Positions 9,401 to 33,400 of a stretch of 64,000 nt of DNA are shown one piece after another. Under the pieces are notes generated by a model that worked only from the letters and a program-made list of their open reading frames with translations, was not told where the DNA came from and did no database searches. Each line of letters opens with the position of its first letter. Position 1 is the stretch's first letter. Source of the stretch: Bugula neritina (lineage: Eukaryota; Animalia; Bryozoa); contig OZ037770.1 in NCBI GenBank assembly GCA_964035545.1, positions 558,001 through 622,000 of the forward strand, in the 5' to 3' direction. A program made the translations under genes and the position numbers.

Positions 9401-12400
9401 TCAAATGATAATTTTCCAGGGGCCTTCAAACCTTCCATGACAGCTCCAAGGCAGACCAACACAGTCCACAACAACAAACAACTAAAAGCTAAACAAACAC
9501 CACTCCAGTGGCAAAGTAGGGTGCGAGTACGATCTAGCTGCCACCATGAAACATTAAGTATAGTGAGTATATAATTACCTGAGAGTTACTCGAAGTATGT
9601 AGGCATGACATTGAAGTATCGAAAGAACAATAAAGTGGGGTCTGGCCGATCAGGGGAAATACAAGGACCAAAATTATAATACTGATTTATAATTATTTTA
9701 TCACAAAGTCTATCGGCATGTTTCTCTACTGTAGGCTGACATCTTTCATCTCGTAATCTCTCGTTCGTCGGTGACCCAATATGTATTTTAATAAACAAAT
9801 GCACATGACATTATAACGTAGCATTTCGCTAGTCCGTAATTAGTGATAAACAAAAGACACATAATAATATAACACTTACATCTGAATGTTGAACTTTCCA
9901 GGTCAATTTTACTGCATTATTTTTTAATCTGCGAGCTGACAATACAGAAGGTGTATTTGGTACTGTCAAACAAACACACATACACTTTCAAATTAGAGGC
10001 AACAGGTAATATACCTGAAGTCAAGTTTTAAAATGATTTGAAAAAAGTACAGAGACTTCCATAAGTTTGGAGGAGCTTAGAGTAACCTGTTGTTAATCTA
10101 GTTTTGTTTGCACAAATTCATTCTAGTGATTACTATACATATAACCGATTTCCATTTTATTTTAAAGATTTTTTATCAACTCTTTCTTTTAATTACTAGT
10201 GATTTAACAGTTTGGCTGTTTGAAGCTAACTCTTAACACAAACTGACTAACTTCAAAATGCTTACATTTTCTGTATTCTAACAAATTTTAGAAAATTTTA
10301 TATAATCTTGTTTAAGCATGTTTCAACTTTTTTTTTTTAGAAAACTTAGTCACCATTTAAATATATGTTTCATTATATTCGTTATAGCAGGTAACATTTA
10401 AACTGTTGCGTGTCAATACTTGAGTTTGAGTGGTAATTCAGTATTATCATGTACAATGAGCTACATAAGAACTTTAAGTCGCCAGTTTCGTTTTCTAAAA
10501 AAACACTTACTAGTTCTGAAGAAGGTTACCACAGGACTAGATTCTCTTATTTCACCATTTCGTTCTGACTTCAGAGTTAAAGAAATCTCATAGAGTCGAT
10601 CATTTAGCAACCCCTCTACATCTTCAATGACTTCACTGTAGATGGGATCTTTAGACCAGTTTTCTGAAATAACACAGTCATCATACCACAGTCATTTGCT
10701 GTGAGAAACTGTATTTATGACAATTGTAGAGGATAGATAGTGTTGGTGATTATATAAATGTAAATTGAAAACCATATTGATTAACTTATTCTTTCTTTAA
10801 CCAAATTATAACTAGAAGTTTTCATCAGCTTATCAAATGTATCATGCATATATTTTTTTTTATTTTTTTACATTGTATATAGGCCTATAAAAACAATTCT
10901 ATTGAAGTAAATTTATTTGAATAAAAAGTGAGTTTGGCATTCATACAACTATTTCAGATGACTAAAGTGTCATTTGATTACTTTTTTGGAAACTGCGCTC
11001 AATAATGGCTCCATCATCTCTGTCTGTAATATTCACTAAAACTTCTGTAAACTCAGAGCCTTTTGGTTTCACAAACCACAGATGGTAGCTCCTTGCTAGA
11101 TCATCAACTTCTTTTTCATAAAATGCAACTTGTGCAGGCGCTACCGGAGCTGTAAGATTGAAAAAGCAAGTGGGCGTTTAAATTTTTACACTAACACAGT
11201 TCAGTTTAATTGAAAGAGCTACTGCTTGTACCTACTACCCTACCTAGAAGCACACATTTTAAATATCTAGGTGCCACAATCCAACAGGAAAAGAATGTTA
11301 TAAGGAAATTGAGCTACATATCTCTAAAGCTTATAGCACGAGTTAAGCGGAGTACTGTGCAGCAGAAAATGCCAACACGCTTGACAGTCTTCATATATAA
11401 GACTGCCATTCGCCCAGGGCATAATTTCACAGTATCTCGTCCTCAGACATAACACTTATGTACCAATACGAGATACATTACATCATAATTAAATGTTGTC
11501 TATCGGCAAAAATTTTGCAGTAGCTAATCATAGTACTATAACAGGGCAGTCTGAGTGTAGTATCTCGTTTATCGGCATAACTATAATAGCCCGTAGTTGA
11601 AGATGGAGTTGGAAGCTTTTCAAATACCTCCCGCATATAATAGCATTTATGCTAGTCCTTAAAACTAAATAAACATTATGGTAGACCAATAATCATGAAA
11701 GCTCTACTCATTTGTAACTGGAGGATTTGCAGCACCACAATACTAAATTTCTTGCATTGGAGGTGCTTAGGCTGTGTTGTCATAGTTATATGTACTTATT
11801 GGGGCTTGGTATAAAATTAAACCTGACAATTATAACAATTAAAGTATTATTGCTGTGGTTTCAACTGACCAACTTTGGAGTTATTATCTCGATTCTTTGT
11901 CAGGAATGGTTAGATAATTTTATGCAATAATGAGTTTTGGCTTTATATCATTATAAATAATGAGTTTTGGCTTTATATCATTATAAATATCTACATTGAT
12001 GGCAGCACTGAGCTAGAATTCTAATATATTTTCAAGCTCATTGGGTGGCAGCTTATCGGCTAAACTTTATGCAGGTATTGAATAATGTGGTTTGATAATT
12101 ATGCTATATTGTTAGGTTCACAAGCATCTTTAAAAAGTTATAATTATTGCGTTGACCATAGGTCAAAAAATTACCTAAAGAGAGGGCAGACAACTCCAAA
12201 AGATTGTTTTCGCAGAAGCAAGTAAAATTCAGCTAAACTGAACACTCCAACTGATCAACATTTTCATCTATTGAAATTGAAGAAAAGTTAAATATTATTA
12301 TACTATTCTAATCATGAATAGGCACAAGCTAAAAAGATATTTATTTCAAAAAATATAAAAAGTAAAGTAACACAACAATGTTTGCAAACGCAGACCTAAA

Positions 12401-30400: not shown

Positions 30401-33400
30401 AACAGTTTTTACATTGGTTTGTTAATTACTTCATAAATCATTTATTACTTCATGCAATATTTGTTCCTGCAATTTTGCAGAGTGGCAAAATGCATTTCAA
30501 AGACATATATTAAGTGATTTTAATTATACTAGAATTTTCAAACCAAGAATTTTTGGGGAGTTTTCTTCTTCCTAAGACAATTGAACACATAATAAGTTGT
30601 AGGCCACAACTCCTTTATACAACCTTGCAAGAAATTATGCAGCCATTTAAATAGAAAAGGAATTATTGAATTTATTTATTCAACATTATTAGTATTTTAT
30701 AAATATTTGTTGCATTTAATTAATGAGCATAAAATTTGTTTTACAAATACTGTAATTAACAGCATGGTAAAAATATATTATATATACTGGTATATATTTT
30801 GTATTGTATTAGATTTAGGCTACATTGCTAATTGAAATGAGTTAATGGCTAAGTTTAAATACCTTCGACTTATAGATTACATTTTTATGTGCTATAAAAA
30901 TTTAACTCGTTTGTTACGACATTTCTCCATGCATAAAAGCAAAACTTACGGCAAGAAATCCTTAGCTAGAAAGATAAATAATAATTTACTTTAATTACAT
31001 CAAAAGCTAATATCAGCAAGCATTCTATAAATAATGGGAATTTACCTAGTGTAATTTTTCTTAAACTAGCTAAGCTTGCTTGGTACTTTAATAAGTTTAT
31101 TGGCATAGTGTATTATGTTATACTTATATATTTTTAAGACTTTAAGGAAAATGATGTTTTAGCTGCGTTATTCCTAATGCAAGCCTTATAAATTTACAAT
31201 ATATACTAAAATATTATATTTGTAATTAGAAAGAAAACAAATTACTTTCATAAACTTATAATTATTGCATTCTGTTATTGTTAATGCTAGAATAACAAAT
31301 TGAACACGGCATATGCTTCCCTAACCAGATGCTTTTAAACGGATTAAAAATAATTTGTCAATTTTTAATTATGAGGAACAAACTCCTCGGTAGTTTCTAC
31401 ATTTGCGCATGATTTTATCAAGATAGGCTTGCTTTTGTGTCAACCTGTAGCCAGTGCAACTATACTTTATGTAACGAGTAAAACAGACTCATTTCAAAGT
31501 ACACAGTCTAAAGGGTAGGAATTACTACAAAGAAAAGTGCCGGTTAAAAGTTAATTATAATTGGAAATAAGGTGAAATATCAGTCAGAAATTAAAAAGTG
31601 TCAACTAAAAAGGTGTATTGTTATTTCTTTTTGGCTTAATGAAAATGTTTTTTGAGGAAGAAGTACGAGAAACATCTAGGAGGGGTTCATATCCACCACT
31701 GGCGACTACCTGTTTATTGATGAAGAACTATCCAATGATAGTACAGTATTATGGTCTTTTGCCTTATAATTGGCTTTGATTTTTTTATGTCTAATTACGA
31801 GATACTAAACAGATGCAAAGTATGTTGTGCACAGGCAGTTTTTTTATGTCTCTAAACAACATTCTAGGAAAATATATACTGCATTCGCCCTACCCTAACA
31901 TATAAAAATGAGATCTGACCTGTTACAGGAACTCTGGTAGACAGGATTAGCTCCTTTGAGATGCGCATGTTAAGGCACTGCATTAAGTTTGAAAGATCAC
32001 AAAAAAATGATCAGATAACAGCAAAAGCAATCAGAGATATATCTTGAAAATAGAGGTTGTAATGATATGGCAATGTTTGCCGACATGAAAGCAATAAGGA
32101 TATCATTAAAGTATATCAAATGAGAGTAGAGGGAAGCATAGAGTGTGGTTAGCCAAATGACAGTAGAGTGACACAATCAAAGCTCAATTCTGTCAGCTTA
32201 TAGAGCTAAACCAGAATGACACAAATGATCAAATGAGATAGAAAAGTCTGGTTCACCTGGAGTTAGGCAAAAAGCCCGTAACCCAATTGGAAAATGGTGG
32301 GTAAAAGCAAGAAATGTGAAAAAGCTACTGAATACTACACAACTAACTAACCATTACTTATGGTAGCTATTGTAGTTACTAATTCTCACTGAAGTACCTT
32401 ATATCATTACTATTCTTGTGAGAAAGCTCAAAAGAAAACGTTTCAATTAAAACTAGCTAAGAATGTATTCATGATTTGAACCAGATCAATTATGATTACT
32501 TCAGATGCTCCTTTTAACATCACCAATGACTTCAGGCTTACTGAGTCTGCATTCTAACTCCAAACCATCAATTAAAATGCAATGTTTCTCACCAGTTAGT
32601 AGCAAGGCTGTGGTGTGTGTAGAGTCAACTCGTTCACCAGTGACAGCAAAACTGGTCAACCAGAGGGTGAAAGTACAGAGTGTTCCTGCTGGTATACTCT
32701 CTATCCATTCTGTAGATGTTGTTGCATTCAAAGAAGAACCCTACAATAAAAATATTATATAACTCTGCATGCAAAATATATACTCAGGCTCTATATTATA
32801 CCTACATATACACATAATGTATACTATAATGGTTTATATACAATACACCAACGGTATTCTTATGCACACACAACTTTTCATATATCTATACACAAATACT
32901 GTTTCATTTAGTTATATATTTAAGTAACTGGAGCCCAACTAGTAGGGTGCTCCGTGACTCACAGCTTGTCTAATTCAACGAATAATCACACGAACAGCTA
33001 GTTATCAGTTGAGTCTTACTGACAAACATACTTAATACTCTCTGACTCACCAAGTATAGAAAACGATCACCACACTCAGTTGATGATTTGATGACCAGTG
33101 AATCATACAATGTGTCTCTCAATGTCCATTCCAGCATGACTTTTAATCTGTTTGTAGAATTTTGCTGAATTGGTGTTACTGTAAAGGTTTGTACTGGGAA
33201 AGGAGCTAAAAGAGTTTGAAAATAAACAAATATTTTTCTAGTAAAGAGTAAATCAGATACATTTTATACCATGCAGTGTGTAGATTAAATACATACCAAC
33301 TGCTTTTTTGATGATTTTCTGCAACTTTCTACCTCCACTGTTTACTCGAAAAAGAATCTCATAACTCTTACCACGTAAAATAGGAAATACTTCACTAGAG

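Follow-up and report, generated by a model that had tools for sequence, protein, structure and literature searches.

Why one of three paralogous genes should carry an intron of more than 21 kb, when the same intron in its neighbours spans a few hundred base pairs, is the question raised by a 64,000-bp stretch of the Bugula neritina genome (GCA_964035545.1, contig OZ037770.1, positions 558,001 to 622,000; hereafter the window, in whose coordinates all positions are given). This AT-rich animal DNA holds three paralogous minus-strand genes, G1 to G3, whose intron 9 measures 249 bp in G1 (donor taken from the printed sequence), 565 bp in G2 and 21,443 bp in G3, in agreement with the lengths read by a first-pass annotation of the sequence alone. 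That annotation attributed the excess to a DNA-transposon-like insertion flanked by a target site duplication (TSD). Here, we describe the inserted unit (11415..31881, plus strand; 20,467 bp, GC 31%) and argue that it is probably a giant, non-autonomous derivative of a hAT element, moved by a related working transposase acting in trans.

An exact match search placed the proposed 8-bp duplication, CATTCGCC, at 11407..11414 and 31882..31889, both on the plus strand; these are its only occurrences in the 64 kb, and it is absent from the minus strand. The unit between them starts with CAG and finishes with CTG. Its ends agree at 10 of their 14 outermost bases and at 25 of the outermost 38 (binomial p 2e-6, given the composition of the unit), while a gapped 300-bp end-to-end alignment was marginal, its score being reached by 21 of 1,000 shuffles. 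The left end (11415..11580, plus strand) combines the CAG terminus and a degenerate terminal inverted repeat (TIR) with TATCTCGT at 11,433 (+), 11,475 (−) and 11,561 (+) and AGACATAA at 11,445. The right end (31780..31881) has its CAG terminus on the minus strand, with TATCTCGT at 31,804 and AGACATAA at 31,792 and 31,851. In addition, AGTATCTCGT is present at 11,431 and 11,559 (+) and as an inverted copy at 31,797, and a 17-base composite, GTATCTCGT-N4-AGACATAA, occurs once per end in inverted orientation and nowhere else in the window. The termini, degenerate TIR and inverted subterminal motifs that had been annotated were thus recovered. The subterminal repeats are asymmetric (TATCTCGT three times on the left and once on the right, AGACATAA once and twice, respectively), which appears to be a hAT-like trait, and the 8-bp TSD, seen at one site, also agrees with hAT. 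However, ten 8-bp repeat pairs with an end match of at least 10/14 exist between 11.3 and 32 kb, so that the TSD and the 10/14 match taken alone lie within chance and outside data were needed to set the boundaries.

Ten public runs contain part of the window, of which six were compared (X1, X2, X3, X7, X9 and X10); all figures and absences derived from runs rest on the contigs listed in their tables. Among the X1 contigs listed, six interior ones (376-855 bp, 0-6 differences) located between 16,102 and 27,979 have a depth of 7,328-8,902 (mean 8,316), and three single-copy contigs from the flanks or junctions, all free of differences, reach 28.3, 31.1 and 49.5. The resulting interior-to-flank ratio of 168-294 translates into approximately 170-290 copies, or 3.4-6.0 Mb. 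Binned depth in X1 is 12,000-25,000 inside the unit and 110-162 beyond both ends. Moreover, the X1 junction contigs stop at 11,442 and start at 31,855, 27-28 bases inside each end, where the assembly graph would branch if the repeat began at the TSD. It is these depth steps and contig stops that fix the boundaries. Depth is uniformly high along the unit, equally at both ends and in the interior; neither outcome that the first-pass annotation had named as fatal to its proposal, a lack of further copies or ends belonging to unrelated elements, was therefore observed, and the description of a repeated, TSD-flanked, DNA-transposon-like unit holds. In X1, at least 30% of the depth disagrees at 83 positions in 10.7 kb (∼0.8%), suggesting that the unit spread recently. 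It probably represents a young family with approximately 170-290 copies, nearly identical and together amounting to 3-6 Mb.

Evidence on the identity of the family comes from the right half, where a decayed transposase gene, probably intron-split and likely of the Ac/Hermes type of hAT, occupies 26023..29345 on the plus strand (outer limits set by eye). Plus-strand hAT-like motifs in this half had been written down before any reference was fetched. References were collected with a motif pattern on eukaryote-derived contigs, and five of the eight loci were real hAT genes; PF05699 was present in four of these five, and an alignment of four Ac-type loci matches Hermes at E 1e-51. A first, five-row profile ranked 28,408-28,500 top of 852 windows (E 0.038). 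A deeper profile of 52 partly overlapping segments, searched against the 852 six-frame windows of the whole 64 kb, returned 28390..28503 (plus strand; profile positions 200-238; ending ...MPNK*LIHSVTTRWS) at E=0.0034, a ten-fold improvement, the runner-up being at 1.2. A block test ranked two independent blocks highest (z 8.6 and 4.5), both as predicted, namely this match and a second, upstream block (EWHRAYAIAKQLQAVLEK, 27050..27201; profile 89-139), both on the plus strand and in order; none of 60 shuffles reached the top z, and none of 60 did so for the second block. A frameshift-aware alignment scored 62.6 against 42.4±5.1 for shuffles, none of 100 scoring as high (with the shallow profile, 97 of 100 were beaten), and a reverse search of a 77-residue stretch in a 16-Mb genome gave a single match (E 0.93), a hAT transposase already in the profile. 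Homology to Ac/Hermes is thus detectable but weak, with Pfam silent. A minus-strand block at 27,262, for a neighbour of which the shallow profile had given z 4.4, fell to z 1.8 with the deep one and was dropped. The 16-Mb genome (G001; loci L040, L042 and L053-L128) is filed as a bacterial metagenome-assembled genome with megabase contigs; its 28 hAT, 2 KDZ, 7 MULE and 139 reverse transcriptase (RT) matches point to heavy eukaryotic contamination.

The gene is clearly dead in this copy: each frame has 32-36 stops across 28,123-29,345, and the longest open frame within the unit is at most 153 codons. An intact DDE triad is missing, which counts against an autonomous hAT element and not against a hAT derivative. 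Because 9-14 stops per frame also fall in stretches matched by high-depth X1 contigs at 1-2 differences, the abundant form itself is non-autonomous. A likely intron with a GTAAGT donor (26233..27004, plus strand) is skipped in one contig of the RNA-type run X7, with a short side of 24 bases. In the left half, a likely spliced second transcription unit (12162..16530, minus strand) contains a segment, 15,167-15,855 (CT..AC), that is skipped in X7 and X9, which represent one sample, with a short side of 22 bases; neither skip is seen in the X1 column. Given these short sides, the skipped segments are only hints of two divergent spliced units. The G3 exons compared had no coverage in the RNA-type runs. 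Neither Pfam nor an atlas search of its stop-free pieces assigned the left-half unit to a family. Further searches of the unit were negative within their scope: word-based protein searches of two pieces (none scored), a PDB sequence search with one frame (no relevant match), an atlas search of two stop-free frames (matches below 0.9 or none) and an Rfam scan (no match). Scans of viral contigs for hAT references gave chance matches or nothing. A codon-bias path search found the nested long interspersed nuclear element (LINE) described below and repeats only.

Relatives of the unit diverged by 8-15% are present in X2, X3, X7, X9 and X10 and span both of its halves. One X9 contig, 9% diverged, ends at 11,416, the left end of the unit; both the multi-copy state and this left end are common to diverged relatives in other samples. 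The abundant form in X3 (depth 809-998) ends abruptly at 24,339, the start of the nested LINE, and LINE-matching X3 contigs have depths of 21-40; both features suggest that an older core of about 17 kb lacked the LINE. Depth at the right end (31,373-31,823) reaches 102,000 in X2, several times the value for most of the interior, which suggests that short elements with the same end exist. In the relatives in X1, X7 and X9, positions 16,150-16,518 of the left-half unit occur as a tandem repeat whose joint returns 369 bases. A phmmer search of 1.84 billion proteins with one right-half frame gave three matches: a member of the same family on a 15.7-kb contig, a match in the region of a miniature inverted-repeat transposable element (MITE) and a repetitive sequence. 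An end-motif pattern scan of metagenomes returned 22 loci, none of them related.

Several observations weigh against assigning the unit to a multi-copy hAT family. Copy number is only approximated by the depth of assembled contigs, X1 may be the source sample of the window itself, and the insertion site with its TSD was read for one copy only among the contigs listed. The TIR is imperfect, matching at 10 of 14 positions only. Pfam recognised no transposase family in 130 stop-free pieces and read-through frames (on the minus strand of the right half, the longer stop-free pieces were covered), and it detected neither the PF05699 dimerisation domain nor a BED finger in the heavily decayed read-through frames 29,050-29,372 and 25,100-25,902; the hAT catalytic acids were likewise not detected in the decayed gene. 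In the frameshift-aware alignment, 5 of 68 real windows reached at least 62.6; these five contain retroelement frames or repeats of AG or AGCAGT. A composition-adjusted alignment was not significant, with 21 and 23 of 32 windows higher. Single hAT proteins gave E 0.8 or worse. The two hAT blocks are separated by 1.3 kb instead of the expected 0.3 kb, which requires an intron or insertion of about 1 kb to be assumed, and both splice joints have the short sides given above. Finally, an intact partner transposase was not seen, X1 showing only diverged relatives at lower depth (93-250).

The strongest alternative is a real giant cut-and-paste element of another superfamily with 8-bp TSDs (Zisupton/KDZ, P or an atypical MULE), in which the hAT-like stretch would be old cargo or chance and the true transposase would be the left-half gene or act in trans. 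The poor TIR, the reduction of the hAT signal to two short blocks and a left-half unit that seems transcribed and matches no family searched all fit this alternative. Zisupton elements are large and contain introns; the KDZ transposase domain is PF18758, accompanied by SWIM or CxC domains. P elements carry THAP and P transposase domains and generate 8-bp TSDs, and Polinton/Maverick elements are recognised by long TIRs and polymerase B, integrase and capsid frames. In Pfam scans of the unit pieces, no KDZ, SWIM, THAP, P or MULE family was found, this being the sole test for P. A phmmer search with the frames of two near-identical KDZ loci did not return the core frame among its matches, although such a test has little depth when the DNA is decayed. 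A five-protein MULE profile, likewise shallow, gave a best E of 0.6 in the window and 1.2 in the unit, which has no long TIR; motif hints of KDZ, SWIM and MULE seen by eye were dropped after these two negatives. The unit likewise shows no long inverted ends, long frames or Pfam match of the Polinton/Maverick kind. As reported in the literature, Zisupton makes 8-bp TSDs, as found at this unit, and Kyakuja ends in CA..TG without TIRs (PMC12730594), whereas no KDZ, SWIM or protease domain was detected in the unit by Pfam or phmmer; MULEs usually have TSDs of 9-10 bp and long TIRs (PMC8277862). Furthermore, no inner pair of TIR and TSD brackets the hAT-like gene within the unit, as cargo with ends of its own would have. 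Among the three superfamilies named beforehand, hAT, P and Zisupton, it is hAT that has the evidence as far as the sequence can tell, and we regard the alternative as unlikely.

A lesser alternative explains the high depth by a single copy having been amplified in tandem or segmentally, residing on a B chromosome or existing in extrachromosomal form, with the G3 insertion as the only transposition. The copies are indeed nearly identical, dispersed flanks were not directly seen, and no loose ends at 11,415 or 31,881 occur among the contigs listed. Yet the change in depth coincides with the TSD-bounded ends and takes in no flanking DNA, the contigs listed include no high-depth loose end of the head-to-tail kind either, and the diverged relatives elsewhere are also multi-copy with the same left end, which makes amplification improbable. 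That the 8-bp repeat and end similarity are coincidental and that the intron grew by several unrelated insertions is hardly credible: the ten comparable repeat pairs in the region and the LINE and MITE in the interior speak for it, but the uniform depth with steps at both TSD copies contradicts it, the 17-base motif is confined to the two ends, and the frame is open across the empty site.

A giant hAT derivative moved in trans could have arisen as follows. Several lineages would have shared an older family of about 17 kb, with a hAT gene on the plus strand of its right half and another spliced unit in its left half. A copy whose transposase was dead may have acquired the LINE of about 2.9 kb in the X1 lineage. 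An intact hAT transposase would then have bound the ends and subterminal repeats, excised the unit and inserted it across an 8-bp staggered cut, with copies gained through donor-gap repair or replication-coupled jumps, and one of the ∼170-290 young copies would have landed in a LINE fragment within intron 9 of G3. There are precedents for the individual steps, as the BED domains of Hermes bind asymmetric subterminal repeats and integration proceeds across an 8-bp site (PMC10368747), and Ds elements are cut and pasted in trans by Ac (PMC3260210). A more far-reaching version can be put forward only tentatively, and is rather doubtful: a giant two-gene hAT lineage with a ∼17-kb core, a spliced transposase gene and a divergent expressed second gene outside known families, conserved across lineages 10% apart, served by a transposase moving 20-kb cargo efficiently and adding several Mb in a recent burst.

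Ac itself has a length of 4.6 kb, of which most Ds elements fall well short. Elements of the hAT superfamily generally span 2.5-5 kb with TIRs of 10-25 bp (PMC3942097). The Ac group, including maize Ac/Ds (with Ds-l3 and Ds2) and housefly Hermes, resembles the unit in its 8-bp TSD, a short TIR that has at most a degenerate counterpart in the unit, asymmetric subterminal repeats, intron-split transposase and non-autonomous copies containing transposase fragments and filler (PMC3260210, PMC10368747), to which the profile match of the right half to Ac/Hermes-type proteins can be added. In contrast to hAT and Ds elements, the unit reaches 20.5 kb, four to eight times the usual hAT size, and still about 17.2 kb minus its LINE and MITE; unlike Ds, it has an imperfect TIR and appears to be itself the high-copy form. 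ToxhAT, a 14.3-kb element of fungal wheat pathogens, is likewise a large composite with a hAT-like transposase gene, cargo and nested elements, although it is reported to have 74-bp TIRs and no TSD found (PMC6737239), whereas the unit is hosted by an animal, has an exact TSD but no long TIR, and shows a depth suggesting hundreds of copies. Animal Pack-TIRs such as Pack-hAT-N8_XT are non-autonomous TIR elements that, like the unit, multiply extra DNA by transposition; they are mostly single-copy, with four multicopy cases in reference genomes, and the hAT example has 291 bp of cargo and three copies (PMC8277862). The extra DNA of the unit, in contrast, exceeds 10 kb and is not evidently derived from host genes. 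DNA transposons of similar size are known from the red alga Chondrus (En/Spm, 16-20 kb; PMC6431247) and from Polintons (15-20 kb; PMC5718144), but these belong to other superfamilies with other TSD lengths and have several intact genes, against no intact frame above 153 codons here. No described hAT family of this size and copy number turned up in dedicated literature searches, which did not extend to Repbase; this is weak evidence of novelty, and similar large hAT families may exist in Repbase, Dfam or paper supplements. In our judgement, the unit is a real feature and probably an oversized hAT-like variant.

Within a family, the non-autonomous DNA transposons that reach high copy numbers are normally the smallest. 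According to one review, transposition declines once the cargo exceeds approximately 6 kb, and eukaryotic elements may be held to a small size by natural barriers (PMC6431247). A dead hAT derivative of 20.5 kb that is present in a few hundred nearly identical copies would, if real, break this pattern of small size. It would have added 3-6 Mb to one lineage and spread a LINE passively, its partner transposase would be a natural large-cargo enzyme, and giant introns would be reachable in one step. Such elements evade family libraries and short-read assembly and are therefore probably under-counted.

As for the host gene, the giant intron occupies 11150..32592 on the minus strand (GT..AG, phase 1). 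The exons preceding (32593..32740) and following it (10965..11149), both on the minus strand, are open, match the adjacent exons of G2 and G1 in order and are joined in phase 1, which bears out the proposal that the two distant halves of G3 form one gene. Since its GT and AG are intact, the intron is likely still spliced in spite of the transposon copy, judging by these sites. Removal of the unit leaves 968 bp, so that the insertion lengthened the intron about 20-fold. It accounts for nearly all of the excess, as proposed, apart from about 400 bp over the G2 length that belong to an older LINE fragment and not to the transposon unit. This fragment is the insertion target and is interrupted into a left (11261..11414) and a right part (31890..32095), both on the plus strand. 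The open frame across the empty site, which reads ...IYKTAIRPTLTYKNEI followed by a stop, confirms that excision rejoins a frame. Its RTE label was matched by no library or fetched reference (30 RT loci included none of that type), and we tentatively call the fragment RTE-like from its motifs. The product of G1 to G3 is likely a single-pass membrane protein with beta-rich repeats, as predicted from its sequence; the repeats look fibronectin-III-like by eye, and Pfam found no match in single exons.

The first-pass annotation had also noted a nested LINE of about 3 kb and a remainder of about 17 kb, both close to what we find. This broken non-LTR (long terminal repeat) retrotransposon (21405..24339, minus strand; ∼2.9 kb) has RT YVDD, CCHC and PD..D motifs and a TAA-repeat tail, and is presumably R4/Dong-like judging by these motifs, no such reference being among the 30 RT loci. 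An X1 contig inside it (22,200-22,781; 6 differences) has a depth of 7,328, showing that the LINE was copied along with the unit; it was nested before the family spread, not after the insertion into G3. A MITE-like inverted repeat at 26436..26833 represents another, highly abundant family distinct from the unit: it occurs next to many different flanks, and its depth is very high in each of four runs examined. The centre of the unit (16900..21400) is AT-rich and of low complexity, with TATTAC, AATCAT and GTA repeats, and a short inverted repeat pair seen by eye in the left half (14,384-14,730) is perhaps an old nested MITE.

Elsewhere in the window, a Gypsy-type LTR retrotransposon (5,045-9,874; 328-bp LTRs with 6 differences) lies inside a later intron of G3. 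The splice donor itself (GTAAG, minus strand) forms the 5-bp target duplication of this element, and the first T of the LTR preserves the donor as GTAAGT. A second Gypsy-type element at the G3/G2 boundary (37,748-42,099) has an open frame of 1,272 codons, and its LTRs of 198 bp are identical; it lacks a target duplication and is possibly recombinant. Positions 1-2,943 and 34,048-36,937 form a 95%-identical duplication of the 5' part of G3, which points to one more tandem paralog, the fourth, lying past the start of the window. A 95-copy AGCAGT array (57,365-57,933) begins at the donor end of a G1 exon.

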